Shown here: positions 40,632-57,200 of the stretch, piece after piece
Numbering within the stretch: the stretch's first letter is position 1
Layout: every line of letters begins with the position of its first letter
Origin: a virus
Strand: one strand, 5' to 3'
IMG/VR virus record: IMGVR_UViG_3300037010_001749
Span: 1-64,000 of that record
DNA length: 64,000 nucleotides
Translations under genes and position numbers: made by a program
Notes under the pieces: generated by a model
The model's input: only the letters and a program-made list of their open reading frames with translations
Databases searched by the model: none
Told to the model about the DNA's origin: nothing

Positions 40632-40808
40632 TCAGTGAGCGTCGCCGCGTTCTTCGCGGCGAAGCAATTCCTTAACCTTGAGGAGGGAGTAGAGCCTGCG
40701 CCCTGGGTTGGACAGGACCAGGCTCGGTGCCAGACATCGTCTGGCCACCAGGCTCCGCAGAATCTCTGCGGGCTTGCCGACACGCTCCGCAATGTCGGCC
40801 AGGGTCAT
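40632..40808 (-). CDS. Small HTH protein
   Basis: MTLADIAERVG....L..L.....P........LYS. Confidence 0.4.
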   Translation of the reverse strand: MTLADIAERVGKPAEILRSLVARRCLAPSLVLSNPGRRLYSLLKVKELLRREERGDAH

Positions 40809-41731
40809 CTTCGGACCCGCGTCAACGCTTGCGGGTCTTGCTTTTGGGAGGTGGGTCACGGCGCAGCGTTTGCATGGCTTCGTATGCCCAGTCCGTGAAC
40901 CATTGGAGGTTCCATTCCTGGGCCTGCTGAAAAGTCTGGTCGTCATCGAAGACCACTTCGAAGCCCGAGACGCTCTCGAACCATTGGCACCAGGCAACCT
41001 GATCTTCTGCCAATTCTGGGTAGACCGCTTTGTAGTCGATCATGGTGCCTCCTGGCTATTGGGGTTTTCCCTGGGCCACTGCGGAAACGAGGCCACGAGC
41101 GTGCGCTCCACGCGGTAGACCTCGATCGGGCCATCGGCCTGGTATTGCATCAAGTAGCGGCCCATCTCGGCCATGGCCTCAGGCATCGTCGGGGCTTCAA
41201 CCGCAGCAACAAGCTCCCCGTTGCAGTGCATCTCTGCTTCGTATCCCATCAGTGCACCTTCTCCACAGTCCAGCCGCCAAAGCGTTGGTCTTCTTTCACC
41301 ACGATCGGCATATCCTTGTATCGAGCGTAGGCCAGGATCACCCACAAGGTTCCGCCGGTGGCACTGAGGTAGTAGCCGTCTTTCTCGAACTGCCTGGCCA
41401 GCTTCTTCGCTGTGGCCCGGCGTAGCGGGATGGGCCGGCCCATCGTCGGCCACTCTGGCCGGGGTTCGATCACGTGGCGCCCGTCGCCCTCGACGACGTA
41501 GGCAGCATCACTTGTCTTCGAACAGCTTCTCGACATGGGTCAAATTACTCCACCGATTTTCGTCAGGCTGCCATTGCAAGCAAGAGCAGCTGAACCCGTT
41601 GAGATGCTCACGCATGACCCAGCGAAAGCCGTCGCCTGTATCCTGGTATACCGTGCGCAGGACGCGCCCAATGCTCACGGGAGCCGGAGTGCCTTCAGGC
41701 ATGCCTGGGTTCTCCAAATTCACTTCCATGC

Positions 41732-42481
41732 CTACTCCTTAGCCCTAGAGAAAAGCCTGGGCGCCGCAAACTTGCGCGCCTTCCGCCCGTGGACTGTGAT
41801 GACCACTGAGGCCCTATTGCTTCGGCCGTCGGCCGTGCCGTTGCATGCACCGCACGCGATGCACGTGAGGCGCTTGCCCGCCTCTTCGCTGGCCGGGCAG
41901 ACCATCTCACGCACTCCGGCCCCAGCCTTGGGCGTGCGCACACGGAAGTAACGCAGCCCCAGAGTCTGGGCCAGCGTAGCTTCAGCATCGCTGTCGACGC
42001 TGGCCATGCAGAGTTCGGTGACACCTTGCCACTGCTCCAGGGGCAAGTCTCTGTTCTGCCACTGGTGCGTGTAGCCTGTGTGGCCTGCGGCCTTGGACAC
42101 CAGGGCCTGCCAGACCCTGGCAGGCACAGCCATCGGGTCCCCATAGGAGCCCAGGCGGACCATTCGGCCCTCACCCAGCACCGAGGGGTCTTCGTGCAGA
42201 GGGTAGCCGCCGCGGCGCCACTTCTTGTAGACCACGGCAGGCCCACGGTCTACCAGCACATAGCAGGCACCGCCGCGGCTGGGGCGCCAGGCACACTCTC
42301 CGCACACAGAGACATCTGCGCCCGAGGCTACAGCCTCAGCCGGGTGCATGTCCTGGCGCAGGATGTATGTCTGCACCATGTTGCCTGTCTTCACGTTGGC
42401 GCTCGCCTTCAGGGCAATGGCCATGATGGGCGCCGCGTCAAGCAGCGACGCCCCTTGCCAGATGACGTGGCCCGTCGTCAT
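41732..42481 (-). CDS. Cys-rich putative metal/Fe-S protein (GP88-like)
   Basis: N.KTG, CGEC.......CY, R....GD, YTH, ASV and CPA.......C..C..C motifs. Confidence 0.45.
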   Translation of the reverse strand: MTTGHVIWQGASLLDAAPIMAIALKASANVKTGNMVQTYILRQDMHPAEAVASGADVSVCGECAWRPSRGGACYVLVDRGPAVVYKKWRRGGYPLHEDPSVLGEGRMVRLGSYGDPMAVPARVWQALVSKAAGHTGYTHQWQNRDLPLEQWQGVTELCMASVDSDAEATLAQTLGLRYFRVRTPKAGAGVREMVCPASEEAGKRLTCIACGACNGTADGRSNRASVVITVHGRKARKFAAPRLFSRAKE

Positions 42482-44610
42482 GTGGGTTCGTCGGCGAGCC
42501 AGCTTCGCGGCACGCAGTAGCATGCAACCATACCGCCTATAGTCGGCATCTCTTCGCCTTCCAAGTAGAAACCCCCATCGAGGTCAGCCGCCCCGGGCAC
42601 GTAGGGACTGCAGGCCCTGTTGGCATGACCGGCTGGCCCGGCGAACACCCACAGCAGCGGCGCACCACCCAACCAGTCAATCCGATAGTTGACGCCGTCA
42701 TAGACGCCTTCGATGATCGGCTCGCTGATATCGATGTTGTCTCGCCGGCGCTCGACGTGTTCCTCGACAAAGGCATCCTTGTCCGGCTCCTGATTCTTGA
42801 ACCCGAACCAGTTTTGCTGGAAGATCTCGGAGTCGAAGCCCACCTCTCGGTCAGCGCCGCTCTCAGCGGCGCTAATGCAGCACTCCTCCGTCAAGGCTTC
42901 GTATTCGCCCTCGGCCTCGGCCACCAGTTCAGTGACGGCCGCCTCGTAGCTGACGTCCTTGGCGTGCTGGCCATAGAACAGGTCATCCAGGCACCAGGGC
43001 TGTAACGAGTTGAAAGAGATCACGCCGTAGGCGAGACCAGTGGTGGGGTTGTAGTCGGGCATCGTTGCTCCTTAGGGCTAGGTACGCTCACACCTCAAGC
43101 CACCACGCGGCCCGAGGCTGAGAAGAAATATGTCAAGCAAAACTTGTCATCTTCGAGCCGCGCAACCGCCGGATGTGCAGCCACTCGCCGTCTGTGAGAC
43201 TGCGTAGCTTCACAGCGTCACCCGCTCAGCCAGCGCCTGGCTGATCTCACCATTCCGGGACAAGCTGTCGACGTAGTCCGAGAAGGCGCAGCGTGTGTCG
43301 GTCACGTGCATGGTGCCGTTGCCGCTGTAGTCGGGGGTCTTTTTGCGCTCCGCGTCGGGGTGCGCTTCCCAAAAGGCAGCGCGAACCTCACGCTGCGCGG
43401 TGTAGGTAGGCTTCACAGCGGGTAGCCCACCCGCTTCACGACCTTGCAGTTCACCACCTCGACCGTGTCTCCGACACGGATGACACCCTCCCGCCGGCTC
43501 ATACCAGGTTCAAGGTAGTGACCCACCAACTGTTGCAAGCCAGGTAGGCGTCGTAATCCTGGTAGAGATCCTTGGTGCCTTCGTAGTGGCTCACGCGGAG
43601 CCGGTACAGCTGCCGCTCCGCGTGGAGGTTTGCGTTACCGTGGTCCACCAGCACAGCCGCGACGCACTCGCTGTTGTTCTTGATGACGATGACCTGTGTA
43701 GCTGCGTTGGGGCTCATGCTTCGAACCCCGCCTGGAAGCCGAAGTAGGCGATGTCCACGTGGCCACGGCTGCAGAAGACCATGTCGAAGTCGCAGGGATT
43801 GACGAGGCCTTCGATGTACCCCTGCGCCTTCCGGTCTTCGCGCCAGGCTTTGGCCACTTCAGCCCGCGCCTTCTTCAGTGCAGCCAAGGCCTCGGTGTAG
43901 TTGTCGCCAGCCGGCACAGACACCAGTGCCACATGGAAGGGCCAGGCGTGCACCCAGTCGGGCGGGAACCTGTAGTGGAGCACCACCGTCCAGGGCTTGC
44001 TGGCCCTCACGACAGCGTCTCCGACTTAGCCTCTTCACCCAGGGCGCGCAACGTGGTGGCCAGCAAGGTACTGGCACGGATCGGGCTCATGCCCGAGGCG
44101 ATGAGCAGGCGCTTCGCGTCCTGCATGGCCTGCAGCCCCTGTAGATTGGTCTGGCGCACGGCACTGCTGAAGGTGCGGATGATTTCGTGTTCGATATCGT
44201 TCAAACGTCTTCCTTAGGGTTGGGGAAAGGCTTGCGCTCCAAGGGGAACGAGGCTAGTCGGATCTGGCCCATGCCCTTGCGAATGTAAATATGCTGGCGG
44301 TGATCAAAACGAAAGGCCAGCATGTCACTGGCCAGGTTGGCCTTCAGGATCGCCAAGTCTTCGGTGTGATAGAACGCCCATCGGGCGGCCTTGATGGCGC
44401 GGCCAAGGTCGCGCCAGGTCTAGCGCAGCGGGGTCACCCCACCACCGCCATGTCGCGCTCGCAAGTATTGAACTCCAGCCCGTGCTCCACGGCTAGGTCT
44501 TCGGCCTTCTGCAGAGCATCCTGCTCCGACTCGGCTTCGATTTCCACCATCGTGGCGTACGTCTCCGTGACGGCCACTTTGTACATTTTGGTCATGCTAT
44601 TGTCTCTAGA

Positions 44611-44628
44611 TTAGCTCGAACGTTATGC
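44611..44628 (+). repeat. attC right half-site (left border of array)
   Basis: TTAGCTCGAACGTTATGC is identical to the end of attC 46862-46931; no left arm upstream. Confidence 0.8.
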
Positions 44629-44744
44629 GCCTGTCTCGGAATGGGTGAGCTTCACCGCATGCCAAGTGCCTAAAACCTCGTCTGCCGCCGTCAGCCAGTC
44701 TTGCGGCAGCGGGTGCGCTTCAGCAGGGCCAGCGCAGCGGCACC

Positions 44745-45458
44745 CTACTCCACCGGGTTCACTGCGCTTCGCGCAATCTCAATGAGCAAGTCTCGGAACT
44801 CAGGCGGTGTACCGTTGCGGATCGCAGTCTTATCCTTGCCGCCCACCATCGCCATCATTCCAATGCGCCGCGCTTTCGCGTATCCGGGCAACTCCACGGC
44901 GCGCGGGTGTAGCCGCTGCGGTGTCTTGCCCCAGCGCAGTTCGGGCAGCAGGCGCTTTTGCACGCCAGCCACAAGCAGCCATGTTCCTTTGCCGGCAAGG
45001 TGCCCGTAGTGGCCTTGGTACACGCAGCACGTCCACAAGCCTGGCGCGGCCTCAACCCACCCACCTTTGCGCGGCGGCTTCTTCAGCCTGAAGTACGCCC
45101 ACGCATGCGAGTCCATCGGGTGTTCAAGCACGCCACCGTTCAGACGCAGCGCCGCCAGTGCGGTAGCAAAACACCCATCGTCGGCGCCCAGCTTGTACTG
45201 GTGCGGCTTGCGCGTGCTGCCGTGCCAGAACCTGCCCCAGCGCTGGCAGGGCAGGTGCGCCACTACCGGGTGCGGGCCTGCATAGGTACGGGCATCGCGG
45301 GCTTGGTCCCACGGGTCAACGCCCGGCACGCCTACATAGCAGCCCTTCGGCTCAACGTAGAGGGCCGCCACCGTACGGAAGCTCTCCACCTGGCGCATAA
45401 CCCCTCGCACAAGCTGAGAGCCAACGGCGGGTGTAATGGGTGCTTCAGGTTTGGTCAT
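44745..45458 (-). CDS. Cassette 1: divergent DNA cytosine methyltransferase-like protein
   Basis: VAAL.V, DAR.Y, VAH(L)PC, VLEHP and C-terminal TP..F...L; ATG lies inside the attC loop. Confidence 0.5.
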   Translation of the reverse strand: MTKPEAPITPAVGSQLVRGVMRQVESFRTVAALYVEPKGCYVGVPGVDPWDQARDARTYAGPHPVVAHLPCQRWGRFWHGSTRKPHQYKLGADDGCFATALAALRLNGGVLEHPMDSHAWAYFRLKKPPRKGGWVEAAPGLWTCCVYQGHYGHLAGKGTWLLVAGVQKRLLPELRWGKTPQRLHPRAVELPGYAKARRIGMMAMVGGKDKTAIRNGTPPEFRDLLIEIARSAVNPVE

Positions 45459-45491
45459 GCCGTTGGTTCCAGCTTTGCTTGGTCATTAGGC
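45395..45491 (+). repeat. attC site, 97 bp, R' degenerate (ATTAGGC)
   Basis: GCATAAC...; near-identical to 47467-47563. Confidence 0.82.
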
Positions 45492-45679
45492 GGCTTGCGC
45501 AACTCGAACATCACAACCCGCCGCAGACCCAGGCGCCGCAGGTAGTCGGCGCTCGGGTTCACCTTCTCGCCATCACGCAGCCGCGACAGGTAGCCGCAGT
45601 CAATCTCGGTCACGCGGGCCACGGCGCGCAGGCTGCCGTGCTGCGAGACGAGTTGGTCAATGCGCTCTGCCAGCGTCAT
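45455..45679 (-). CDS. Cassette 2: XRE/Cro-like HTH protein
   Basis: SLRAVARVTEIDCGYLSRLRDG...NPS...LRRLGL; ATGA-coupled at both ends. Confidence 0.75.
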   Translation of the reverse strand: MTLAERIDQLVSQHGSLRAVARVTEIDCGYLSRLRDGEKVNPSADYLRRLGLRRVVMFELRKPPNDQAKLEPTA

Positions 45680-46020
45680 GACTGATACCCGGCCAGCGCG
45701 TTGGCTAGCGCGGCATCCGCTTCGCCGAGAAAATCGTCCGGCACAATGAACGACACCCACGCGGGAGCGTTCGGCGTTGCTGGATGCCTCGCGTATTGCA
45801 AGAGCGTCGCAAGCAGCACGGCACAGCGCTTCGGCGCAGCCCGCACCAGCACTGCAAACCGCTCCAGGTGCTCCTGCGTCACGCCGTGGCAGCCTTCGCT
45901 GTACACGCACGAACCGCTGCCGTGGTTCAGCACGTTCACCATTCCAGCAGCCTCCACCAGCGGGCCTAACCCCTCTGTCGAGCCGAGTGCCAACGGCTGG
46001 CTGGTTTTGGTAGTGTTCAT
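45676..46020 (-). CDS. Cassette 2: hypothetical protein
   Basis: AAGGAG RBS and ATG inside attC 45964-46068. Confidence 0.65.
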   Translation of the reverse strand: MNTTKTSQPLALGSTEGLGPLVEAAGMVNVLNHGSGSCVYSEGCHGVTQEHLERFAVLVRAAPKRCAVLLATLLQYARHPATPNAPAWVSFIVPDDFLGEADAALANALAGYQS

Positions 46021-46068
46021 CGTTGCTTCTCCTTGGCCGTTGTCACCGGCTCAACTCCAACGTTAGGC
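45964..46068 (+). repeat. attC site, 105 bp
   Basis: GCCTAAC...GTTAGGC; near-identical to 48750-48854. Confidence 0.9.
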
Positions 46069-46069
46069 C

Positions 46070-46444
46070 TCACACCAGCCACGATGCAGCGGCAGCTTGG
46101 CGAGAGGCTGTGTCGCGTGCCTTGATGCCCGCCAACAAGTCGGCGGCCAGCAGCGGGTATTCGGCGGCGCACGATTCTACGTATGCGCGCAGGGCCGCCG
46201 CAGCGTGCTTATCATGCGTCAGGTCCAGCACAAAGTAAACGCAGCCGCAGTGCTTGCCGCCCGGCGCGCTACTGCCGTCCGTTCGCGTCACGTTGAATCT
46301 GCTGTACAGCCCACGATTCCTGTCACAGGGCATTGGCTCGCCGCACAGTTCACACTTGCTCATGCTTTTCCTCGCTCCGGCACCAGGCCGAACCATTCGC
46401 ACAAGCTGCGCCCCAACGGCGGGGCACAGCAACTCGGTAGGCAC
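46070..46444 (-). CDS. Cassette 3: conserved phage hypothetical protein (start may be 46363)
   Basis: GLY..F.V.RTDG......FVLDL..D..A..AL.AY motif. Confidence 0.65.
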   Translation of the reverse strand: MPTELLCPAVGAQLVRMVRPGAGARKSMSKCELCGEPMPCDRNRGLYSRFNVTRTDGSSAPGGKHCGCVYFVLDLTHDKHAAAALRAYVESCAAEYPLLAADLLAGIKARDTASRQAAAASWLV

Positions 46445-46487
46445 CGCCTGCGCGGCCGTTGGTGCCAGCTTTCCTCAATCGTTAGCC
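46387..46487 (+). repeat. attC site, 101 bp
   Basis: GCCGAAC...GTTAGCC with inner CCAACGGC/GCCGTTGG stem. Confidence 0.85.
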
Positions 46488-46500
46488 AGCGCCAAAACCA

Positions 46501-46821
46501 TCACGCCGGCTCGTAGGTGGCTGCGAAGATGTCCGGTTTGCATGGATAGTGCTCGCCGGCCACGCCGCGAATGATCCAGTCGCCTGGGCTAGCGACATGC
46601 TGGCCTTCAAGCGTCGGAACCATGATGTTGTTGTTGTGCCATTGCGCCAGCTCGCGCCCGATGGCGTGCTGTCCCTCGTTGATCCAGAGAATCAGCGCAT
46701 AGCTACTTCCGTCGTTGCGGAACTGGCGTGCTTCAATCACGATAGGTTTCTTCCTGAAGCGCGTTGTCTGTTCGGTTGTTGCCGCGTCCAGCTCATGGCC
46801 GGCGCTGAGAAATGTTTGCAT
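46501..46821 (-). CDS. Cassette 4: conserved phage protein (PGDYG-like)
   Basis: RKKP.VIEA.QF...TLEG...PGDWII.GV.GE.YPCKPDIF..TYE. Confidence 0.7.
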   Translation of the reverse strand: MQTFLSAGHELDAATTEQTTRFRKKPIVIEARQFRNDGSSYALILWINEGQHAIGRELAQWHNNNIMVPTLEGQHVASPGDWIIRGVAGEHYPCKPDIFAATYEPA

Positions 46822-46861
46822 GACGGTTCCTTCTGTGTTGTGCCAGCATGGGTCGGGCGCT

Positions 46862-46931
46862 GGCTAACCCCTCGCTCAAGCGGATTTGCCACGGAGTACC
46901 ATGTCAAACGCGCTTAGCTCGAACGTTATGC
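46862..46931 (+). repeat. attC site, 70 bp
   Basis: GGCTAAC-CCCTC-GCTCAAGC...GCTTAGC-TCGAAC-GTTATGC; extra C in L''. Confidence 0.92.
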
Positions 46932-47530
46932 GCCTTGAGGCACGCCACCATTTGCCGCGCCGACTGTCTCGCGTCCATCAACGGGTGGTGCGCCGGTAGT
47001 TCGTCCGGCAAGCGCTCGGTCAGTTCCAGCGCGTTGCCGCCCAGCGCCAGGATCACGCTTGCCAAGTCGTGCAGCGGGTACGGGCCTTGCCACTCGCGCT
47101 CGGCGTGGTTCAGCTTCACGCACGCGCTCAGAAAGTTGGCTTCCACCGGCCAAGCGCAGTCAGCCACCAGCACCGCGCCCTGGTCGGCCCAGCTTCGCCA
47201 CTCATGCCAAAAGTGGTTCCGCAGGTGCTGCTTCGTTGGGCTTGTCACCGGCAGCGCCGGCACATGCTCGCCCACCCACAGCCGGCTTTCGGCGGTGCCG
47301 GTGCAGTCGGCGGGGTCGCAAGCAATGCAGCCTTCGTCCAGCCGCTCGCCTTCTCGGTTCACCACTACCCAGGCCACTGCAAAGCCCTCGCCATGCAGGC
47401 CAATGCTTTCCACGTCAAACACCATAAATTTGTCCATCACCATCCTCTCGTTTCTCGCTGCAGGCGCCGTAACACCTCGCACAAGCTGAGAGCCAACGGC
47501 GGGTGTAGTGGGTGCTTCAGGTTTGGTCAT
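46904..47530 (-). CDS. Cassette 5: DEDDh 3'-5' exonuclease/exoribonuclease
   Basis: VFDVES.G and H.PL.DA motifs; ORF begins and ends inside attC sites. Confidence 0.75.
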   Translation of the reverse strand: MTKPEAPTTPAVGSQLVRGVTAPAARNERMVMDKFMVFDVESIGLHGEGFAVAWVVVNREGERLDEGCIACDPADCTGTAESRLWVGEHVPALPVTSPTKQHLRNHFWHEWRSWADQGAVLVADCAWPVEANFLSACVKLNHAEREWQGPYPLHDLASVILALGGNALELTERLPDELPAHHPLMDARQSARQMVACLKAHNVRAKRV

Positions 47531-47563
47531 GCCGTTGGCTCCAGCTTTGCTCGATCGTTAGGC
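47467..47563 (+). repeat. attC site, 97 bp
   Basis: CCGTAAC...GTTAGGC; near-identical to 45395-45491. Confidence 0.85.
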
Positions 47564-47863
47564 GCTTACCGCAGGGCCAGCAGGCAGCGGCATCCAGTGC
47601 GTCACACGTCTCACCAGCGCTGGCGGCAGCGGCCAGTTGTGCTGGTCCACCTCCCACCGAGGGCCCTCACCAGTAAGCCGGAACTTCGTGATGTGCGCGT
47701 GTCCAGGAGTCAGCCGGTCAAAGACCCCGCGGCGCCACACCAGCACGGTGGCGTTGTGACTGGGCAAGCGCTCGCCAGTCGGCACCCACGCGCATAACCC
47801 CTCACTGCAACCGAGCCCCAACGGCTGGCCCGTGCTGCTGTCATCGGTAGTTTCAGTGGTCAT
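47558..47863 (-). CDS. Cassette 6: DUF551-like protein
   Basis: W....ERLP.....VLVW...VTHWMPLP; GAGG RBS and ATG in the attC loop; stop inside the R' box. Confidence 0.75.
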   Translation of the reverse strand: MTTETTDDSSTGQPLGLGCSEGLCAWVPTGERLPSHNATVLVWRRGVFDRLTPGHAHITKFRLTGEGPRWEVDQHNWPLPPALVRRVTHWMPLPAGPAVSA

Positions 47864-47911
47864 CGTGTTTCCTCTCGTGCCGTTGTGTCCGGCTCACCTC
47901 GAACGTTAGGG
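47792..47911 (+). repeat. attC site, 120 bp
   Basis: GCATAAC...GTTAGGG. Confidence 0.85.
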
Positions 47912-48079
47912 CGCAGGGCCACGCTTGCGGTTCTCGCGGCGCTGCAACTTCGCTTCCAGCGCCCTGACCTCTGGCACGTACTCCGGGCGCACATGCACTG
48001 TCACCGCAGTGCGCCCGGATTCCTTGTGGCGCTGCCGCTCGTCGGCCTTGCGCTCTGCTGCTGTTTTCGCTGGGCTCAT
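47906..48079 (-). CDS. Cassette 7: 57-aa basic putative DNA-binding protein (not in the ORF track)
   Basis: MSPAKTAAERKADERQRHKESGRTAVTVHVRPEYVPEVRALEAKL...; ATGA-coupled to the upstream ORF; TAA inside the R' box. Confidence 0.6.
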   Translation of the reverse strand: MSPAKTAAERKADERQRHKESGRTAVTVHVRPEYVPEVRALEAKLQRRENRKRGPAP

Positions 48080-48318
48080 GCCAGCGTGGCGCCGGCCGCT
48101 AGGTAGTGCGCCAGCTCGCTGTCCGGGATCGAAACGAACCTGTAGCCCATGCGGTGCGCAGTGGAGCCATCAGGAATGGTCACAACGCTGAACGGCTCAC
48201 CCTTCATTTCGGCAATCTGCTTTGCGTAGGCACGCACTGGCTCGGCCTGCGAGTGGATCGGTTCCACTTGCAGGGCTGCGCGCTGGCGCTTCAGTGTCTT
48301 GGTCATCTCAGCTTGCAT
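48076..48318 (-). CDS. Cassette 7: 80-aa hypothetical protein
   Basis: AAGGAG RBS then ATG (MQAEMTKTL...), downstream of a cassette-internal promoter. Confidence 0.65.
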   Translation of the reverse strand: MQAEMTKTLKRQRAALQVEPIHSQAEPVRAYAKQIAEMKGEPFSVVTIPDGSTAHRMGYRFVSIPDSELAHYLAAGATLA

Positions 48319-48357
48319 CTCTTGCTCCTTCTGCTGCACTGTAGCCGCAGTGGCTAC

Positions 48358-48386
48358 AGTATCGCTCATCGTGACACGTCACGCAA
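48358..48386 (-). promoter_or_regulatory. Sigma70-like promoter with overlapping inverted-repeat operator
   Basis: Minus strand TTGCGT-N17-GATACT; CGTGAC-AC-GTCACG at 48370-48383. Confidence 0.65.
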
Positions 48387-48401
48387 GCATTCTCGCGTGC
48401 G

Positions 48402-48507
48402 CCCTAACCCCTCGTTGCAACCGAGCCCCAACAGGCTGCGGTCAGTTGTGGCCTTTCGGCCTGCTTATGCACGGCCTGTTGGGGCCGGCTGAACTCGAAC
48501 GTTAGGC
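48402..48507 (+). repeat. attC site, 106 bp
   Basis: CCCTAAC...GTTAGGC; core identical to 49114-49219. Confidence 0.92.
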
Positions 48508-48806
48508 CCTTCAATGCCGCGAGCAATCTTGCTGGCGGCATTCCGCGCGTTCACCGTCACGCCGTCAGCGTGCGTCTCGCCCCAGCGGCGGGCAATGGCG
48601 GCGCAGCGTGCGCGCTCGGCGGCCACGGCCTTGTCAATGCGCCACTGCACATGCGCCGGGCTTGACCAATGGCCGCACTCGGCGGGGTCATCGTTTGTGC
48701 CGCAGATTGTCATGGTCAGGTATTGGCCCTCGCGCTGCGGTGGCAGCGGGCCTAACCCCTCTGTCGAGCCGAGTGCCAACGGCTGGCTGGTTTTGGTAGT
48801 GTTCAT
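48465..48806 (-). CDS. Cassette 8: hypothetical protein
   Basis: RBS and ATG in attC 48750-48854, stop in attC 48402-48507; AVAAERARCAAIA motif. Confidence 0.65.
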   Translation of the reverse strand: MNTTKTSQPLALGSTEGLGPLPPQREGQYLTMTICGTNDDPAECGHWSSPAHVQWRIDKAVAAERARCAAIARRWGETHADGVTVNARNAASKIARGIEGPNVRVQPAPTGRA

Positions 48807-48854
48807 CGTTGCTTCTCCTTGGCCGTTGTCACCGGCTCACATCGATCGTTCGGT
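48750..48854 (+). repeat. attC site, 105 bp
   Basis: GCCTAAC...GTTCGGT. Confidence 0.88.
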
Positions 48855-48861
48855 GTGTTGC

Positions 48862-49143
48862 TCACCGCGAGCAACCCAAATGCTTGCCGTCGCTCGTCAT
48901 GCGTGGCGTGAGTCCGCCGGCCGAAGTGCGCAGATACTGGCACCCGGTCAGCGCGTCGGTGCTGGGCACCAAGCCGCTGCGGGCGCCCCACGCGCCGGGG
49001 TCCGTGTCATCGCGCCCAATGGGCAGCAGGCCCACAACCAGCATCATGGCCACGCCAATCAGCAGGTACTTCCCGCACCAGCGGGCGAACATTTTTGCTT
49101 CTATCAACGACACGCCTAACCCCTCGTTGCAACCGAGCCCCAA
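48862..49143 (-). CDS. Cassette 9: small membrane-anchored protein (DUF6440-like); start uncertain
   Basis: Hydrophobic segment, then D..TGCQYL....GGLTPR...DGK. Confidence 0.55.
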   Translation of the reverse strand: MGLGCNEGLGVSLIEAKMFARWCGKYLLIGVAMMLVVGLLPIGRDDTDPGAWGARSGLVPSTDALTGCQYLRTSAGGLTPRMTSDGKHLGCSR

Positions 49144-49219
49144 CAGGCTGCGGTCAGTTGTGGCCTTTCGGCCTGCTTATGCACGGCCTGTTGGGGCCGG
49201 CTGAACTCGAACGTTCGGC
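49114..49219 (+). repeat. attC site, 106 bp
   Basis: GCCTAAC...GTTCGGC. Confidence 0.92.
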
Positions 49220-49220
49220 A

Positions 49221-49523
49221 TCAATACCGGCTTTCGAGTTTCGCCAGCGCCGCTTTGATGATCGACTGCATCACCTCATCGGTCATGTGCTTGGCCATTG
49301 CGTCCTTGATGCCGGTTTCCAGCAGCGGCGCGTAGGTGGCCAGCACTTCCTTTTCGATCAGTTCGCGCACGTACCGCTTGACGACATCATCGAATGGGTT
49401 GTTGTAGCTCTTGGACAGTTCAGCGATGCTGCGCTGAACGGCACCCTTCACTACTTCACCGATCTGGCTGTCCATCACAGTCTTGGCGATGAACTCGTTA
49501 ATTTGCTGCGGGGTCAGTTCCAT
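49221..49523 (-). CDS. Cassette 10: helical hypothetical protein
   Basis: AAGGA RBS; fills the cassette. Confidence 0.7.
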   Translation of the reverse strand: MELTPQQINEFIAKTVMDSQIGEVVKGAVQRSIAELSKSYNNPFDDVVKRYVRELIEKEVLATYAPLLETGIKDAMAKHMTDEVMQSIIKAALAKLESRY

Positions 49524-49546
49524 GTCGTTTCCTTCTGTGCGTTGAT

Positions 49547-49651
49547 GCCGAACTGGCAGTTCAAGCAGAGCCCCAACGGCGGCCTGCTTTTGTGGTTAAA
49601 AACTCCGGCGTCCGTGGCGCCGTTGGTACCTGCTTAACCTAAACGTCAGCC
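49547..49651 (+). repeat. attC site, 105 bp, R' degenerate (GTCAGCC)
   Basis: GCCGAAC-TGGCA-GTTCAAGC...GCTTAAC-CTAAAC-GTCAGCC. Confidence 0.85.
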
Positions 49652-49687
49652 GGCACCAATACCCTCGGTGCCGGCATACTCGTGTTG

Positions 49688-49966
49688 TCAGAACGTGGTG
49701 GGCTGCGCAATGCCGCGAATCAACTTCATGAAGCCCACTTGCAGGTCAGTGGCTCCCATGCTGACCCACCGCTGGTCAAGGTCCAGTGACAGCGGCCTGC
49801 CATCGGCCACAGGCGTATCGGTGCGCGTGATGTCAGGGTGTTGACGCAGTTTCGCCACAAAAGCGCCGCACTGCTCGGCCAGCGCCTTGCCCTCGTTCAT
49901 CAGCGCTACTTCAGCACCGCTCAGTTGACGGTAGCCCGTCACTTTCGGTTGAATCATCGTTTCCAT
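49688..49966 (-). CDS. acb2: Cassette 11: Acb2-family anti-CBASS cyclic-nucleotide sponge
   Basis: 92 aa; K.TGYR.LS..E..LMN..K...RW...G.TD.Q.G.M..IR.IAQP..F matches the Acb2 pattern as I recall it. Confidence 0.85.
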   Translation of the reverse strand: METMIQPKVTGYRQLSGAEVALMNEGKALAEQCGAFVAKLRQHPDITRTDTPVADGRPLSLDLDQRWVSMGATDLQVGFMKLIRGIAQPTTF

Positions 49967-50006
49967 GTGGTTCCTTAAGTTGCATGCCAGCGTTGGTGCG
50001 GGTGCT

Positions 50007-50076
50007 GGCTAACCCATCGCTCAAGCGGATTTGCCACGGAGTACCAAGTCAAACGCGCTTAGCTTGAACGTTCGGT
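50007..50076 (+). repeat. attC site, 70 bp
   Basis: GGCTAAC-CCATC-GCTCAAGC...GCTTAGC-TTGAAC-GTTCGGT; near-identical to 46862-46931. Confidence 0.92.
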
Positions 50077-50310
50077 CCGTTCATTCGCCACCGCCACTGC
50101 ATCAAGCACACCCGGCTTCATCGCCAGTTCCAGCAGGCTGCCCATCATGCGCTTGCCGTGCGCCCGGTTGGCATCCAGTAGATCGATGTACTTCTTGCGA
50201 TACTGGTGAAGTTCTTCGTTTTCCTCGCGCAGCCGCTCTAGTTCGTGATGCATGTCCAGCACGTCGGCGGCCATCTGCACAGCCAGGGGCACTTTGTAGT
50301 CTCGCCTCAT
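50059..50310 (-). CDS. Cassette 12: coiled-coil hypothetical protein
   Basis: GGAG RBS; stop lies in the L' box of the next attC. Confidence 0.65.
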   Translation of the reverse strand: MRRDYKVPLAVQMAADVLDMHHELERLREENEELHQYRKKYIDLLDANRAHGKRMMGSLLELAMKPGVLDAVAVANERTERSS

Positions 50311-50329
50311 CTCGTTTCTCCACCAACGG

Positions 50330-50365
50330 GCCTAACCCGTCGCTCAAGTTGAGAGCCAACGGCGC
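50330..50365 (+). repeat. attC left half-site (right border of array)
   Basis: GCCTAAC-CCGTC-GCTCAAGT..GAGAGCCAACGGC; no right arm, runs into the next phage gene. Confidence 0.8.
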
Positions 50366-50377
50366 CAGCAGGCACCG

Positions 50378-51289
50378 TCATGCCGCCTCCTTAGCCTTGA
50401 GGAGGCCCAGTTGGTGGGCGATACCTTCGATCTCATCGAAGGCGATGTCATGGCAGCCGACCACGATATTGCCGTTGGTGCAGATCTTCGTCAACTCGTA
50501 GTGACCCAAGGTCATGCCTACCTCGTAGTCCTTCTTGCCCTTCATGACGCGCTGGATGACCGGCCAGAGCTTCTTCGCGTCTTCGACGGGGATGCTGGCG
50601 TGGCGGCTGGTCTGGATCATGAACGACGGCAAGTCCAGCCGCAGCATCGTCGGAAGATCCCGGCTGAGCGCTGGGCTCCCACTCCGCCGCCAGGCTGTAA
50701 TGGCGACGGCCTGCAGCCTCCGAAAGGCCTTGGCCTGCGACACTGCGCGGCGTTTCTCCGAGACGGCTTTCTTGGCCAGGTGCTCGCGGTGCTGCTCCGG
50801 GCTCCACGTCGCCGCATCGATCGGCTTGATACGGGCCTTGTGCTTCAGCAGCTTCGCAAACTGGTTGAAGTCGGCGGTGATCTGCGCCGCTTGGCTGAGG
50901 TAGACAGGCCGATTGCCGTCGGCCTTGGCGCGTAGGGCCTTGGCCAGCAGGTTGTCGACGAGGGCCTGAGTGCCTTCCGTGTCCGGCGCGTCGTGCTCCG
51001 GGTTCAGCACGGACACCTGCTTCAGGTGCCTGGTGGCGTGTCGTGCCTCCCAGACGTGCCTGTTTGTCGTGGAAGAATTCTTCTCCAGGTTGATGGCCAC
51101 CCAGCCGCCGGGTAAGTGGCGACCGATGCAGTAGTGCTTGCCGTAGCTGTAGAAGTAGTCGCCTTCGACGAAGGCCTGGATGACGCGGCCGCCGTTCATG
51201 CCGGGACGCTCGGGCATCCGAGCTTCAGCCTGCCGTTTGTGGGCCCAGATGTGGGCCAGTTCTTCCGAGTGGTTGTACACCGTCTTCAT
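50378..51289 (-). CDS. Hypothetical early protein, ~303 aa
   Basis: GAGG RBS; ATGA overlap with the upstream ORF; YSYG.HY and GCH motifs. Confidence 0.7.
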   Translation of the reverse strand: MKTVYNHSEELAHIWAHKRQAEARMPERPGMNGGRVIQAFVEGDYFYSYGKHYCIGRHLPGGWVAINLEKNSSTTNRHVWEARHATRHLKQVSVLNPEHDAPDTEGTQALVDNLLAKALRAKADGNRPVYLSQAAQITADFNQFAKLLKHKARIKPIDAATWSPEQHREHLAKKAVSEKRRAVSQAKAFRRLQAVAITAWRRSGSPALSRDLPTMLRLDLPSFMIQTSRHASIPVEDAKKLWPVIQRVMKGKKDYEVGMTLGHYELTKICTNGNIVVGCHDIAFDEIEGIAHQLGLLKAKEAA

Positions 51290-54200
51290 GCGATGAGTCC
51301 TCGTTGTCTTGCGTACTCGACCAGATGGGGTTGCCACTCAGCTTCGCTGTTGGCTGACCGACTATTGAAGCCGGCGAGGCGTGGAGCGGTCAGGTAACCC
51401 GACTCGATCTCCTCGTTGATGGCCTCGACATCAAGGCTGAAAATCTCGCGCCCCCTCGGGGTGCTGAGGCTGGCGTATCCGTCGCCTCGTTCAAACCACA
51501 CGCTGGCCACGTACTCGTGGTCAGCGATCTTCTTTGCCATGGCGGCTCCTTAGGGCTAGAGAACCCGGCCGATGCGGTCCTGGCCTTTGATCTTGATGGC
51601 CATGTCAGTACAGGTTCTCGCTGTACAGCGTCCCATCGTTGGCATCGTCGCCACCGCAGCGGCGGACGATCTGGCCTGCCGCTTCGGCAACCTTCCAGGC
51701 CACCGTCCGAGACATGAACACACCGTGCTGGTCGATGAAGCCCTGCTCCTCTTTCGGGTCATGCGGAGTGAAGGCCTGCACGAGTCGCCACTGGTCGCGC
51801 ATCACCAGGTCCCAGTGCCGGGCGCCGACCAGCATGTGGTAGTCGCCGATCTTGGTGGCCGCGCAAACGACGCGTCTCATCGCACACCTGACAGGTTCTC
51901 GTACTCTTCGACGCCCATGATGACGCACTCGATGACAGCCAGGCCGTCTCGAAGCCACATCGGGCACTCGCGCTTGGCCTGCTGCCCGTCTTCCTCCGTC
52001 AGGTGGAACTGGTTCGCACCCTTCTCGAAGCCCAGCGGCTTGCCGGCGCGATCCTTCTGCATGGCCACCCACACTTGAGTCGGCGCCGTCACTTCAGCAC
52101 ACCTGCAATCTTGGCGTACTTCTCGAGCAGTTCCGGGAACGCATCTTCGATGCGCCGGATGCTGTCGTCGTCAGCCACGAGGTAGGCCTCGGCCAACTTG
52201 GCGGCGAACCCTCCGCCGTAGGCTCGCATCACCCGGATGATGTCCAGGCGGTCGTTCAGTTCGTAGTGCATGACGCCTCCTTAGCGCTGAGGAGCCAAGG
52301 TATAGAAGCGGACCGCCGCATCGCGGCGCCAGGCATCCAGCAGTTCACCGTCAGCGCCGGGATACTTCTGGACCTTGTCGCCCACCCAGGCCCGCTGCAG
52401 GTTCTCCTTCAGACGTTCCGCCTGAACTGGGTCAGCAAAGCGCGACACCGTGAGCAACTCGTTGGGCGGGTCGCACACGACGGTGTACAGCGTCGGGTGG
52501 TAGAGCGGCGGGATACCCGCCTTCTGCTGATGCCACGTGCTCAAGCTCGATCCTCCTTAGCGTTGAGGGCGTTGGCGATAACCTGGGCCTGCCCCATGCC
52601 GGAGCACTCGCAGACGACCTGGTTTCCGTACCAGTCGTCGCCTGCCTCTCGTGCGTACGGCGGCGGGTCGATGTTCGTGTCCACCACTGAGGCATCAAAG
52701 CAGCAGGCATGGCCGAGGATGCTGCGCTCCACAGCCTTGTACCGCGGCGTCATGTCACCTCCCGCAAGGTGGCCTTGTCGCGCAAGTCAGCACGCCACTG
52801 CTCGGCCCAGCTGGTCAAGTCTGGGATGTGCTCACGGACAAGCTCGCACACCATGTCCGCGAAGTAGCCTGCGGCGCAGCGCTGCCAGAACTCATCGGCG
52901 TTGCCGTAGCAACACGCGCCCAGGCTTTCCTCGCCCAGCATCTCGCCACGGTGCCATAGGCTCACGTCGGCGTTGAACCAGGCGAAGTCCTCGATCTCGC
53001 GGTACTGCTGCGGCGTCCACCCGCACTCCTTCACGAAATGCCGGTGCATGCTGACCGACTCTTCCGGAGGAGCATCGAAGCAAATCATGTAGTCGGTGCC
53101 AGGGATCACAAGCACTGGTTTCATTTCTGCCTTTCAGCGAGGCCAGAGGCTGCGGCGGCTTCCGCATGCTCCAGCGAACCCAGGTAGCTGCGGCCTTCAA
53201 TGGCGCGCAGTTCGGTCAGGCGGTCGCCCAACTCCTTAGCCCTGAGGAATTCGTCCCCGGCCAGCCGGCTGCCCAGCGCCTTCAGGATCAGCAGTGTGTC
53301 GAACTTGTTGAGTTCGAAGATCCAGTTGGGCTTGAGGTGCAGTTGCGGCTTGTCGATTCGTTCACCGTTCATCGGCTATCCCTCATCTTGTCCACGTTGA
53401 AGCGCTTGATCCAGCGCTCGATGATCGTGTCGCACACGCCCAGGCCATCCAGCAGCCCATCGAGGTCTTCCGCACGCAGGCATAGGCTGACGTGCCCGTA
53501 ACTCTCGTGGCTTTCGATACCCCGCTCCGGATCACCCTTGAACGCCTCGTCGAGCATGTCAATCAGCTGAGTGACGTAGTAGCCACCTGGCTGCTGATTG
53601 CGCTCTTCGGCGTCACGCAGCACAAACTCCAGCCGGTGCCCATGCCAGGTCTTGACGTTGAGCCAGCCGTCGACGTGGGTCAGCTCAGCATAGATGTCGT
53701 CGTCGTCGCTCACAGCTTCTCCGCCACCAAGCCAGCGAGCATCGTGCGCATGGCCTGGGTGTAGCCCATCAGGTAGAGATCGCCGTTCTCCTTAGCGTTG
53801 AGTATGATGTTGTCCAGGCCCTGGAACATCGATTCGATGCGGTAGTCATCGACTAGCCGGTTGCGCCGTCGGCGGTCAGGCCGCTCGATCCCTTGATTGT
53901 CGGTGTAGTAGTCCATGTCAGGTCTCCACGATTCGTGCGTCCCAGCCGTAGGCGATACTCTCGCCTCCCTTGGACAGCATGTTGAACATCTGCTTGATGT
54001 CATCGAGCACGTCATTTGGGTCACGCAGCATCTCGCCTTCCTCGGACGGGAGAAGCGTGACCATGATGTGCACGGGCTTCGCCCGCGGCTCGCCATCATC
54101 GGGGCCATCGGCCCCGGCACGCTCGAAAGGCTCGTGGCTGTCGCAGCCGTCGTCGTACTCTTCAGGGAGCATCAGCTTTCCTCGGGTGCAGCGTAGAGCT

Positions 54201-57200
54201 GCTCAACGACAAGGTCCTGGGGCCGGGCCAGCGGCGGTTGGGTGTAACGCCAATGTTGCGACTCATCGGAGTTCTTCCAGAACCAGCGCGTGCCTGCGTA
54301 ATACGTCAAGGGGCTCGCCTGAAAGGCGGCCTGCAGCATTGCTCCATAACCATCTTCTTCAACCGCCTCCATGGCGTCGAGCATCGCTCGTGTCGCCACG
54401 GTGGGCACCAGCTTCCAGTGGGTCACAGGTCCACCTCGCGCCCATCGGGCATGATCAGCGTGGTCTCGGTGCTGATACCGAGCACCGCGTCGAGGATCTT
54501 GAGGCTGTAGCTGGGCAGGGCCGGCGCCACGAGATTTTCGAGCGTCTCGTGCAGGGTTTCCACGTGGTCGTCCTGGTTGGGGTCGAAGTCGTCGGGCACT
54601 TCGACCTCGAACGTCTCGCGCTCCCAGACGGCCTGGTCGCGTTGGATTCGGATCTTCATTCAATGCCTCCAAACAAAGCCGTCTTCGGTGAGGAAGCCGC
54701 CGCCGATGCCACGTTCGGTGTAGGCGCCTTGCAGGGCGTACTCGAGGACGTCAAGCTGGGTGAGTCTCACCGCCCGGCTCCTTCGCGTCCTGGTACATCG
54801 GGCACGACGGCGTCAGGCCGTCACAGTTTTCGCGAATCAGACGCCGACGGACTTCCGCGTAGCCGTCGCTCATGGCGCAATAGCTGTCGCCGTCCTGATC
54901 TGCGTCTCGGTAGGGGCATCGCCCGCACTCGGTCACAAAGAAGCTGAAGCCCTTCACAGCAGCCTCGCTACTTCAAGGCGAAACTGGTCAATCATCCTGG
55001 TAACGTGCCAGGTGATCGGTAGCACGTCATCGACGCGCCACCATGAGCCGGCCCTGATCTTCTTCGGCGTGAAGCCCCAGGCCTCGATGTCCTGCGCCTT
55101 CATCACGAAGGGCAGGGCCGCGTTGAGTTCGGCGGTGCTCACGTAGAGCACACCGTCGATCATTTCAGTCTTCAAAGGACCTCCTTAGGGCTGAGGATCA
55201 GGCAAAGCGCTGGGCGCTCTCTCGGTACCAGACATACTCTTCTTGGGCCCAGATCCAGTCTGGGTAGCCAAGGCACTTGACGGCTTGCCAGATTTCCTCG
55301 CAAGCCCCGGCCTGGCCTTCAGCGTAGGCCTTGACGTATTCGGCGTACACCTCCTCGGGTACGTCCATCACTGCAGTTTCGCCAACTGTTGCTTGCCCAG
55401 CGTAGTCAACCACAGCTTGCCCGCTGAGTCCACCGTGATGTACCTCAGGTCATCGAAGTAGGTGGCCCACAGCCGCGGGCCCACCGGATCGAAATCGTCG
55501 AAGAAGATGACCTTGGTGGCACCGCCACCAGTGTTGTGCACGTACTGCAGCACCTGCTTTTGGAATGTGCTCATCCCGCCTCCTTAGCGTTAGGGAGCCG
55601 CCGGTGCTCCTGCCGGTCGTCTTTCAGCCGCTTCTCGACCCGGTCACCAGTCCCGCCGTTGACGGCGATGTGCACAAGGCCGTCGACCCAGGGCTCGCAG
55701 TAGAAGCTGACCGTGTTGGCCACCAGGATGGCGGCCAGGCGTTGGGCCGTGGCCTCATGCATCTCGAAGATGGCGACCCCATCGGGACCACCCTTGATGA
55801 GCAGGGCCACGTCAGTCCCCCGGCGTGTCGCTGCTGGGCGCGTCGTAGCTGGCGTCGGCACCACCGCCGCCGAAGTCACCACCGCCGCCGGACTCAATTC
55901 CGTCGGTGCCGCCGAAGCCCACGGTCGGACGGCCTGTGCCCTCGGGAATCTCGGGGCTGTCCTGGATCGCATCGACGATCAAGCTGCCCACAGCCATGGC
56001 CTCGGTAGGCAGTGCGCCGACTGCCGGCGGCGCCCAGTGAAGCTCCAGCGCCTCGGGGTAGAAGGTTCTGCCATAGCATTCGGCATAGTGCGTCACGTAA
56101 ACACGGCCCGAACTGCTGGCGTTGTTCGGCGCGCTGGCGTCGTCCAGGCGCCAGACGTCACCCCACTTGTCAGTGATCCGCTGGCCGGCCACAACAGGCT
56201 TGAACCACTTGTCCAGCAGCGTATAAGTGCCGTTGTACCCTTGCTTTTCCATGTCTGACTCTCCTTAGTCCTGGGGAACGTAATTCTTGAAAAAGACCCG
56301 GCCATAGCTCTGACTCGGGACCTCATCGGGAAACGCGCTGCGGCTTCCGCAGCGATCTTGGTTGGGTAGAGCACGTCGCGCAAGTCTTGCACGCGCCAAA
56401 GATCCACGACATCAGGCATCGCCTACGTGGCGCAAGTAATCAGTCACTTGGTTTCCTTTGCCAGTGAGCGGGCCACACGTGCCCGCAGCTTCTCAAACTG
56501 CACCATCTCATCGGTAATCTCGTCGAGCACCTCGTCGTAATAGTTGACATCGGGGCAGGTGGCGATCTGGTTGTGCAATTCCGCGATGGCCAGGCCCAGG
56601 CCCTCGTGGACCATCTTCAGGTTCTTGCCTGTGAAGATCACGGAGCGCACCCCATGATCTGCTTGCGCACCCAGACATCCTGCTCGCGCCGGTCGATCAG
56701 TTCCTTCAGCGCGTCAGCCAGATCCTGGCTGTCCACGTGCTCGAAGTCTCCAGTGGGTAAACGCGCTCCGCGGTTGGCTGACAGGCCCCCCTCGTGGCGC
56801 ATGCGGCGCAGCTTGCTGTGCATCGTGTGCAACTCCTCAAGGCTAAGGTTCAGTACGGTCCCCAGTCGTATGAGTAGGGCACGTCGAACCAGGCCTGCTG
56901 CGGCGACATGCCTGCTTCGAAGCGGCTCTTCCATGCCTGGCGTTCTTCCAGCGGGCCGGACTCCGCGTCATAGTGCGCCAGCTTCTTCTCGGCGGCGATG
57001 CGCTTGAGTTCGGCAAACCACACAGCCTTGTCCCAAGGCAGGCCCACCAGGTGCTTGTGGCGGTTCACCACGTTGAAGTAGATGCCGTCCTCGTCACTGG
57101 CGAAGTAGCCGACGATGCGCTTGCCTTTGTGCTCGGTCACGGCCGGCACGCTGAAGTAGGTGTCAGCGTAGCCGCTGGCGTAGCAGGTGAGTCTCAGCTG

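Follow-up and report, generated by a model that had tools for sequence, protein, structure and literature searches.

Reversed-polarity attC sites in a phage cassette array as probable parts of the translation units of their own genes

The window analysed here, the first 64 kb of a linear 85,895-bp IMG/VR virus record (IMGVR_UViG_3300037010_001749; CheckV completeness 71%), belongs to an uncultured siphophage encoding a tape-measure protein, tail proteins, a DNA polymerase, a primase, a helicase and an SbcC-like nuclease, and carries at 45.4–50.4 kb an array of 11 full attC sites (e1–e11) and two half sites. Between about 18 and 58 kb every convincing gene lies on the minus strand. The best explanation of the findings, which we hold with good though not complete confidence, is that this is an attC array of reversed polarity, in which the recombination hairpin would form part of the translation unit of its own gene; with the same confidence, the array would be a cluster of attC sites lacking an integron integrase (CALIN), made up of genuine integron attC sites and carried by a Burkholderiales phage. 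It is classed as a CALIN and not as an integron because no integrase is found in the phage record: profiles TIGR02249 and PF00589 gave no match, and hence no tyrosine recombinase, in the whole 85.9 kb, a record that is 71% complete, and the set of intI, attI and Pc beside the array that defines a complete integron is absent from it. Among five other array-bearing viral records examined, one has a partial Phage_integrase match at the contig end.

The array appeared as families of eight copies together with four near-identical pairs (e1/e5, 90%; e2/e8, 95%; e7/e9, 99%; e4/e11, 92%). On the plus strand an element starts with a box ending in AAC, followed by five unpaired bases, three pairs, an unpaired C, six pairs and an unpaired A, and continues through a stem of about 11 bp, a loop of 30–53 nt, a complementary arm that lacks the two additional bases, and a box whose first letters are GTT. 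When a structure of 27 pairs was tested on an alignment of the 11 window elements (A1), 87.4% of the cells were paired, compared with 19–45% when the 3' partners were slid by 1–3 columns, and nine pairs showed compensatory changes on both sides. The imperfect L''/L' stem (helix 2) was 91.8% paired, with changes on both sides in nine of its 20 pairs, and the R helix was 76% paired in the 11 window sites, its mispairs lying in the outer positions, as expected after exchange. Parts of Nivina et al. (2016, PMC5027507) set out three rules for attC sites: in the top strand the arm bearing 5'-AAC-3' also carries the extrahelical bases, and in the bottom strand they lie on the arm opposite it; these bases, as a rule a G in L'' and a conserved T, must have a 6-bp stem between them; and folding favours the bottom strand by about 2 kcal/mol. 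All three rules hold for the repeats, and the plus strand is therefore the attC top strand: on the bottom (minus) strand the extrahelical bases are G and T, 6 bp apart, and this strand has the lower DNA folding energy in nine of the 11 full sites, e1 showing the reverse and e5 being equal.

A strict scan for attC-like palindromes by regular expression and alignment recovered only three sites, and a covariance model built from A1 (R1) was therefore used in its place. Run on the window with filters off, R1 found these 11 sites and a weak twelfth (e12), and it found no site in the remaining 21.9 kb of the record. A degenerate pattern of the repeats matched 57 IMG/VR stretches and at least 120 stretches of bacterial genomes, and the bacterial stretches with multiple matches came nearly all from Burkholderiales, for example Rubrivivax, Aquabacterium, Hydrogenophaga and Leptothrix. 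In the viral loci R1 gave 161 matches at E ≤ 0.01, a number that includes some reverse-strand echoes and loci on the same contig; in 53 bacterial loci it gave 211 matches at E ≤ 0.001, typically in long same-strand arrays of 126–129-nt sites, with 133 sites in Burkholderiales loci at E ≤ 1e-9. The two unpaired columns, which are separated by six paired ones, hold C in 106 and A in 116 of the 119 viral sites and C in 126 and A in 129 of 133 bacterial sites, and AAC is kept in 116–118 of the 119 viral sites, all of these counts being taken from alignments (A2, viral; A3, bacterial) that were fitted to R1 and thus favour its structure. The integron integrase IntI (TIGR02249) is present in all five Burkholderiales genomes tested, with scores of 443–468 bits against an NCBIfam cut-off of 265, presence being scored at the level of the whole genome. 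In view of the Burkholderiales arrays, the IntI matches and the kept unpaired columns, the repeats are, by anatomy and kinship, attC sites of the family used by the chromosomal integrons of the likely host clade.

In cassettes of canonical polarity the open reading frame (ORF) lies on the top strand and attC is 3' of the gene. With the plus strand as the top strand and the genes on the minus strand, the genes of the window are inverted relative to such cassettes. For other loci, polarity was called for each interval between attC sites as the strand holding the best-scoring ORF, using a codon log-odds score that was trained on ten large genes of this phage and that recovers the minus-strand genes of the region. 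In 20 viral loci the gene was on the bottom strand in 91 of 97 intervals and on the top strand in none, six being undecided; with the window left out, the 86 intervals gave 80, none and six, respectively. The 115 intervals of 14 bacterial loci comprised 17 bottom, 60 top and 38 undecided, many of the last probably because the codon model is phage-trained. The canonical arrangement was not encountered in the viral loci, and in a separate check of 80 viral loci oriented by a single protein family (phrog_12600), 46 of 48 R1 matches lay on the strand opposite to the gene, one of the two exceptions being the reverse-strand echo of a site. The arrays in the other viral loci are flanked by phage genes (terminase large subunits, RecE-like and Erf-like recombinases, a helicase and methyltransferases), and these loci have almost no genes in common with this phage outside the array, so that the arrays are not explained by a single phage lineage. 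Reversed polarity is, judging from these loci, a property of the phage arrays of this attC family and not of one genome. In the host arrays, 17 of the 77 decided intervals have a bottom-strand gene as in the phage cassettes (e.g. L136, L105 and L078).

A sequence-only reading of the window had located start codons inside attC loops at 45458, 46020, 47530, 47863 and 48806, and the ORFs, the folds and the R1 matches agree in placing each ATG between the paired hairpin arms. It had further located the ribosome-binding site in the loop at three of these, and this also holds. In e2 (45964–46068, +; R1 103 bits) the loop contains, on the minus strand, the Shine–Dalgarno (SD) sequence AAGGAG at 46029–46034 and, after N8, the ATG at 46018–46020 that opens a 114-aa gene (45676–46020); folded as RNA, this site has an energy of -44.1 kcal/mol (z -4.95), with the SD sequence and the AUG unpaired in the loop. 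The same AAGGAG-N8-ATG is found in e8 (48750–48854, +; R1 104.5 bits, repeat D4), where the SD sequence at 48815–48820 and the ATG at 48804–48806 open a 113-aa gene (48465–48806, -). In e6 (47792–47911, +; R1 74.2 bits) the loop holds GAGAGGAAA at 47868–47876, N4 and the ATG at 47861–47863 on the minus strand, opening a 101-aa DUF551 gene (47558–47863) in which the Pfam domain begins at residue 26 and which has no other in-frame ATG. In e1 (45395–45491, +; R1 87.7 bits) the loop ATG at 45456–45458 (-) opens the 237-aa phrog_12600 gene (44745–45458), and the ATGA at 45455–45458 is, as had been described, an overlap of this start with the TGA of a 75-aa helix-turn-helix (HTH) gene; the SD sequence here is weak, consisting of GGAA only. 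In e5 (47467–47563, +; R1 92.2 bits) the ATG lies at the loop edge (47528–47530, -), in frame with a 208-aa gene (46904–47530), and its GGAG (47539–47542) is paired in the L' arm (RNA fold -40.1 kcal/mol, z -3.96). A sixth site, e12, which the sequence-only reading did not list, has a loop-type start for a 24-aa relay ORF. An initiation region, taken as an SD sequence 3–11 nt upstream of the gene-opening ATG, is present in e2, e8, e6 and e5, and across loci in 32 of 110 sites. The broader proposal that attC sites double as translation-initiation modules is supported by the sequence at the five starts, and only five of the 12 window sites hold such a start.

For a census across loci, the loops were located from A2 and A3, and an SD sequence was counted when a core of 4–6 nt lay 3–11 nt before an ATG. 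On the bottom strand, viral loops contained an SD sequence with an ATG in 40 of 117 cases, 36 of which read at least 40 codons past the attC (36 of 106 and 32, respectively, without the window). On the viral top strand the combination occurred in 4 of 115 loops, in the bacterial bottom strand, with twice as much loop sequence, in 8 of 126, and in the bacterial top strand in 3 of 130, of which none, two and none read at least 40 codons past the attC. The excess of the viral bottom strand over the controls is large (Fisher p 6e-10 and 4e-8), although the relatedness of sites and contigs means that these and the following p values overstate independence. After de-duplication, in which sites whose downstream 250 nt resembled those of an earlier one were dropped and 110 of 115 were kept, 32 of 36 loop SD-ATGs were in frame and open with the best-scoring downstream gene (binomial test against 1/3, p 7e-12). 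No SD-start was found in the first 150 nt past the attC at 22 of the 32 loop-start sites, whereas one was present at 58 of the 78 others (odds ratio 6.4, p 4e-5). The most upstream SD-supported start lay in the loop at 33 sites, within 15 nt downstream of the attC at three, 16–60 nt downstream at 47, further away at seven and in the L''-R'' arm at three, and there was none at 15.

The 32 loop starts have two layouts. At 17 sites the SD sequence is in the loop; at the other 15 it belongs to the L' arm, and the loop begins with the ATG. For the 12 of these 15 that have a clear upstream gene, the upstream stop lies at -30 relative to the ATG six times, at -23 twice and at +1, as an overlap, four times; such near stops would fit translational coupling. 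The bottom-strand spacer GAGGGG was also considered as an SD sequence for starts just after the R'' box and was dropped, since only six sites have an R'' box with an ATG in frame and only 3 of 110 first starts follow the site at a distance of 1–15 nt. In the bottom-strand loops of Burkholderiales chromosomal attC sites (L060–L139) an ATG is present in 97 of 126 and an SD sequence in only eight, which suggests a motif conserved in the host loops that has nothing to do with translation.

If the plus strand is the top strand and exchange takes place at G|TT of the R' box, the cassettes are predicted to run from R' box to R' box and, in mRNA sense, to consist of the attC first and the gene second. 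The earlier proposal that inversion puts each attC 5' of its own gene is therefore in agreement with the AAC-arm rule and the bottom-strand genes. The further proposal that initiation signals travel with the cassette gains support from two cassettes that the window has in common with other loci, both of which include the 5' attC. The cassette common to L006 (window 46913–47562, 86% identity) comprises all of e5 and its gene with only the last 19 nt of e4, the neighbouring site in L006 being of another attC type, and the cassette common to L045 (window 48821–49223, 81% identity by blastn) comprises all of e9 and its gene with the last arm of e8. Both shared cassettes end within 5–27 nt of R' boxes. 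Logan contigs on the window break at repeated attC parts, and Logan joints with sides of 18–31 letters were left out of the evidence. In one contig from a sediment metagenome (depth 3.7), the R' box of e6 (47907) is connected to a position just past the R' box of e8 (48871), with two cassettes skipped, which may hint at a natural excision variant.

The R' box also bears on where the preceding gene ends. Upstream ORFs had been noted to stop in the R' box, and at e5 and e6 the stops are indeed the TAA of the GCCTAAC boxes, at 47558–47560 for the DUF551 gene and at 47906–47908 for a 57-aa gene. Among 83 clear upstream genes of the 110 de-duplicated viral sites, 36 end at the R' box TAA, three are in the TAA frame of a box without TAA, 22 end just before the box (median 4 nt) and another 22 continue through it, using AAC as a codon, to a stop located in the arm or loop, so that most genes end at the very edge of their own cassette. 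The idea that a third frame is forbidden at the crossover was not upheld, as this frame is present and stops just before the box (22 sites). In the two positions -4/-3 before the bottom-strand R' box, T is found in 61 and G in 86 of the 110 sites, and in 24 sites the bases before the box form TGA, which stops the one frame that the box itself cannot stop.

Where a loop start is in frame, the arm that follows it would be translated as a leader, and the shared leaders predicted from the sequence were all recovered. The 114-aa and 113-aa proteins are identical over residues 1–21 (21/21) and unrelated thereafter, the 237-aa and 208-aa proteins agree at 19 of 20 positions over residues 1–20 and are likewise unrelated thereafter, and the 101-aa DUF551 protein has the leader GQPLGLGCSEGL. 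The 237-aa protein is a member of phrog_12600, a family with more than 7,000 homologs, and its PHROG profile begins at residue 28. Among the best 120 homologs, most begin M(x0-7)[VI]AALYVE and, in a count made by eye, about 18 have 25–36 extra residues with attC-arm motifs. In the 80 viral loci, all 11 distinct phrog_12600 copies that are preceded by an attC have an attC-internal ATG in frame, and with L004 and L045 added the in-frame start is kept in at least 13 different attC sites, giving leaders of 28–36 aa whose loop-encoded sequences and lengths vary. In L045, a 33%-identical relative has its in-frame start inside yet another attC, and in L004, which has lost the R'' box, there is no other possible start and the SD sequence is strong (AGGAGTAGGAAG). 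In many phrog_12600 copies the R'' box reads GTTATGC and holds a further ATG in frame, which L004, L045, L199 and L192 lack.

Other loop ORFs end on the start of the next gene. The relay ORF of e12 runs from an ATG at 50379–50381 to a TGA at 50307–50309 on the minus strand (24 aa), with the SD sequence TAAGGAGG at 50386–50393, and it has ATGA overlaps with both the stop of the gene at 50378–51337 and the start of the gene at 50059–50310. In the L006 copy of the 208-aa cassette, a difference of 1 nt puts the loop ATG out of frame, and the loop ORF is a 31-aa peptide that ends in TGATG on the ATG matching Met32 of the window protein, an ATG with an SD sequence of its own; the loop start there would thus relay ribosomes and add no leader. 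About six further out-of-frame loop ORFs (23–30 aa) in other loci end in an ATGA or TGATG overlap on a gene-frame start, most of them without an SD sequence by the rule applied. The L''-R'' arm may thus yield an N-terminal leader in some cases and a relay peptide in others.

Taken as a mechanism, reversed polarity would mean that the mRNA carries the bottom-strand sequence of the attC, and that a cassette in mRNA sense begins with the attC, less its first six R' bases, continues with the gene and closes with the RYYYAA of the following R' box. The hairpin would accordingly sit in the 5' leader of its own gene and move with it on exchange, and since no tyrosine recombinase is encoded in the 85.9 kb, exchange would presumably be carried out by a host IntI, a step to which the anatomy and the two shared cassettes point. 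The variable loop would carry a translation start in about one third of such phage sites, in one form with the SD sequence and ATG both in the open loop (e2, e8 and e6), in the other with the ATG at the loop edge and the SD sequence buried in the L' arm (e1 and e5), the previous gene ending 0–30 nt upstream. Ribosomes starting in the loop would translate the L''-R'' arm, either as a leader of 20–36 aa or as a relay peptide of 23–31 aa that ends in ATGA or TGATG on the gene start, and the R' box would often supply the TAA of the previous gene. That ribosomes could open the hairpin in any cassette order, as had been proposed, would be consistent with this scheme. A bolder version, which we offer tentatively and would not yet call probable, is that phages keep a mirror-image cassette pool shuffled by host IntI, in which attC is a coding, frame-aware 5' module (SD sequence and ATG in the loop, leader or relay in the arm, stop or Asn codon in the box), so that any order would be translatable and in-frame fusions could arise, and captured cassettes would be silent in both directions: the reversal would silence phage cassettes captured by a host integron, and host defence or toxin cassettes captured by a phage array.

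Among the alternatives, the one that survives best, although we regard it as unlikely, is that the loop ATGs are unused, that the genes start downstream and that the leaders are chance open frames in high-G+C DNA copied with the repeat. Several points weigh on this side and against translation from the loop. Loop-start sites make up five of 12 in the window and about 30% of phage attC sites overall, and at the 47 of 110 sites mentioned above the first SD-supported start lies 16–60 nt past the attC. Two of the window starts have downstream competitors, GAGAGG-N6-ATG at 47435–47437 for 47530 and GGAGG-N8-ATG at 45940–45942, 26 codons downstream, for 46020. An in-frame ATG within the R'' box (GTTATGC) is found in e1 and five other sites and could be the real start there, the frame upstream being open by chance; the high G+C content keeps frames open, and 13 of 25 loop ATGs without an SD sequence also read past the site. 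Most relatives of the 237-aa protein lack a leader, in L006 the loop ATG and the 208-aa gene are in different frames, and e6 does not take the hairpin form in its minimum-energy RNA fold (z 0.09). The preferred explanation is further limited by the simple devices of our own making that served for SD calling, loop boundaries and codon scoring, and by the relatedness of the sites and the fitting of A2 and A3 to R1, both noted above. An unused ATG would, however, hardly be in frame in 32 of 36 SD-backed cases, nor would loop starts be depleted where a downstream SD-start exists. The frame is kept in the 13 attC contexts of phrog_12600 despite differing loop lengths, L004 has no other start at all, the out-of-frame loop ORFs end precisely on the ATG of the gene, and the combination of SD sequence and ATG is 5–10 times rarer on the control strands and in host sites.

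A second alternative, to which we give marginally less weight than to unused ATGs, accepts the loop starts as real and treats them as purely mechanical: a ribosome melts the hairpin and hands over to the gene, the fusions are accidents of 1-nt insertions or deletions and the leader has no function. The ATGA and TGATG relay ORFs in e12, L006 and about six other sites are in line with it, as are the single-base difference between the window and L006 cassette copies, which switches between fusion and relay, and the independence of the leaders from protein family, the same leader being found on unrelated proteins. A proposal that attC structure affects downstream translation, reported in part of PMC11511950, where ribosome traffic is tied to attC folding, points the same way. 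The fusions (32), however, far exceed the clear relays (about seven), and the fused genes at 47863, at 48806 and in L004 have no second start. This alternative would refine, and does not contradict, the explanation preferred here, in which the hairpin belongs to the translation unit of its own gene.

That the repeats are instead intercistronic RNA hairpins of the phage (processing signals, terminators or stabilisers) convergent on attC, and not integron sites at all, is highly improbable: they are intergenic on one transcript and fold strongly as RNA (e2 as given above; e7, -60.3 kcal/mol), and the phage record has no integrase, but R1 matches arrays in all five IntI-bearing Burkholderiales genomes tested, the AAC/GTT boxes and both extrahelical bases are found at canonical spacing in more than 89% of sites, homology between phages breaks at R' boxes, an RNA role cannot explain conservation in the host arrays, and the genes of those arrays lie on the other strand. 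Rfam and tRNA scans of the window gave no matches, and no known RNA family is therefore assigned to the repeats either.

Compared with canonical integron cassettes, as far as the rules in parts of PMC5027507 describe them, the phage sites have the same R''/R' boxes with AAC/GTT, the same imperfect L''/L' stem, extrahelical G and T 6 bp apart, unpaired central spacer and variable loop, the cassettes likewise hold one or two genes, homology breaks at the R' box, and the same sequence family fills arrays of IntI-bearing Burkholderiales. They differ in that the phage genes are on the bottom strand with the attC 5' of the gene, in that the loop carries an SD sequence and an ATG and the arm would be translated, in that the crossover box gives the stop of the previous gene or an in-frame AAC, and in that the record has no IntI, attI or Pc. 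Phage CALINs have been published for virulent and temperate phages (Qi et al. 2023, PMC9892861), and the sections of that paper seen report that IntI1 recombined five of six phage attC sites tested and describe 17 CALINs with at least two sites each, in the typical orientation of bacterial arrays with some divergent sites. The arrays described here resemble these as integrase-less attC clusters in phages; those sections make no mention of uniformly inverted genes, loop starts or attC-encoded leaders, and arrays of the present kind hold as many as a dozen sites and occur in 20 or more viral contigs. An effect of attC structure on the translation of the downstream cassette has been proposed (Jacquier et al. 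2009, as cited in Carvalho et al. 2024, PMC11511950), and there, too, the attC hairpin of the mRNA interacts with ribosome traffic between cassettes. In the portions of PMC11511950 concerned, however, the attC is an obstacle or neutral, in top-strand RNA and 3' of the gene, whereas here a bottom-strand hairpin would hold the start signals. In the full-text literature, with subscription-only papers and supplements outside reach, no paper was found that describes start codons within attC loops or phage arrays with uniform inversion.

T4-type phages are said to carry comparable units, promoter early stem-loops (PeSL) placed before small accessory genes and shuffled by homologous recombination, which Arbiol and colleagues reportedly described in 2010. 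These, too, are small phage accessory genes, each behind a conserved stem-loop with expression signals, including a promoter, and thought to shuffle between phages as units; the sites here differ in being attC sites with integron recombination features and in carrying translation and not transcription signals. Integron-type cassettes with reversed polarity, and a recombination hairpin that would lie inside the translation unit, appear to be new relative to the published phage CALINs.

The attC is usually treated as a non-coding hairpin 3' of the gene, with a loop called 'variable' to which no function is assigned. The phage set would use it the other way round, the loop and one arm belonging to the expression unit, and this may explain how phage accessory genes that are swappable and have no promoter of their own can still be translated at any point of insertion. 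It predicts a class of proteins with N-termini encoded by recombination sites, and it carries a warning that arrays of this kind will be annotated wrongly by gene callers and integron finders that expect canonical polarity. Two debated points on which it touches are the origin of cassettes and the mixing, if any, of phage and host cassette pools.

The remaining sites of the array all lie on the plus strand except e12. At e3 (46387–46487; R1 78.4 bits), which has no loop ATG, the gene at 46070–46444 (-) probably starts at an ATG at 46363 behind GAGGAAA, its phrog_9572 match beginning at residue 41. The short site e4 (46862–46931; R1 48.6 bits) is entered by the upstream gene at 46904–47530, which crosses the R' box with AAC in frame and stops at a TGA in the loop, and the next gene starts at 46821, 41 nt beyond the site. 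The site e7 (48402–48507; R1 92.2 bits, repeat D5) has no loop start, and its next gene starts at 48369; its near-twin e9 (49114–49219; R1 93.4 bits) has no loop ATG, and the frame of its gene (48862–49143, -) is open from a TTG in the L'' arm. At e10 (49547–49651; R1 78.4 bits) the next gene starts at 49523, 24 nt beyond the site, and at the short site e11 (50007–50076; R1 45.6 bits, repeat D8) an Acb2/Tad1-like gene (49688–49966) starts 41 nt beyond it. Both ends of the array are half attC sites. The left one (44587–44630, +; repeat family D3, 82% to e5) has the L'-R' arm only, and the right one (50330–50406) the R''-L'' arm only, with e12 and its relay ORF occupying 50307–50406 (-; R1 15.8 bits; arm 50330–50363). 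Each still supplies a start codon, the right one that of the relay ORF at 50381 and the left one an MTK start at 44595, where the ATG at 44593–44595 within the half attC opens a 53-aa DpnD/PcfM-like gene (44434–44595, -; PF14207, 26.9 bits) with the same MTK start as at e1 and e5.

A blastn search of e2 and e5 against 50,697 deposited phage genomes gave no match, so that by this measure no cultured phage appears to have these site types; in Pseudomonas phage Persinger the annotation of the homologous region is partial. With regard to cassette contents, the product of the cassette between e10 and e11 (49688–49966, -) is a 92-aa protein in which PF24729, the Acb2/Tad1 hairpin domain, is matched at 47.1 bits (cut-off 27). 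Proteins of this domain family are known as sponges for CBASS and Thoeris signalling nucleotides, and at least one cassette therefore looks like an anti-defence gene. The cassette between e1 and e2 (45455–46020, -) holds two genes with an ATGA overlap, the 114-aa gene, which belongs to no known family, and the 75-aa HTH gene, which has a weak phrog_8 match; they are possibly a regulator pair or a toxin–antitoxin-like pair. Finally, a TCCTTAG-NN-YTRAGGAG dyad recurs in the region 40669–55606 (e.g. 50378–50413, 52268–52303 and 55571–55606; repeat families D9–D11) and overlaps the SD sites of many minus-strand early genes outside the attC array.

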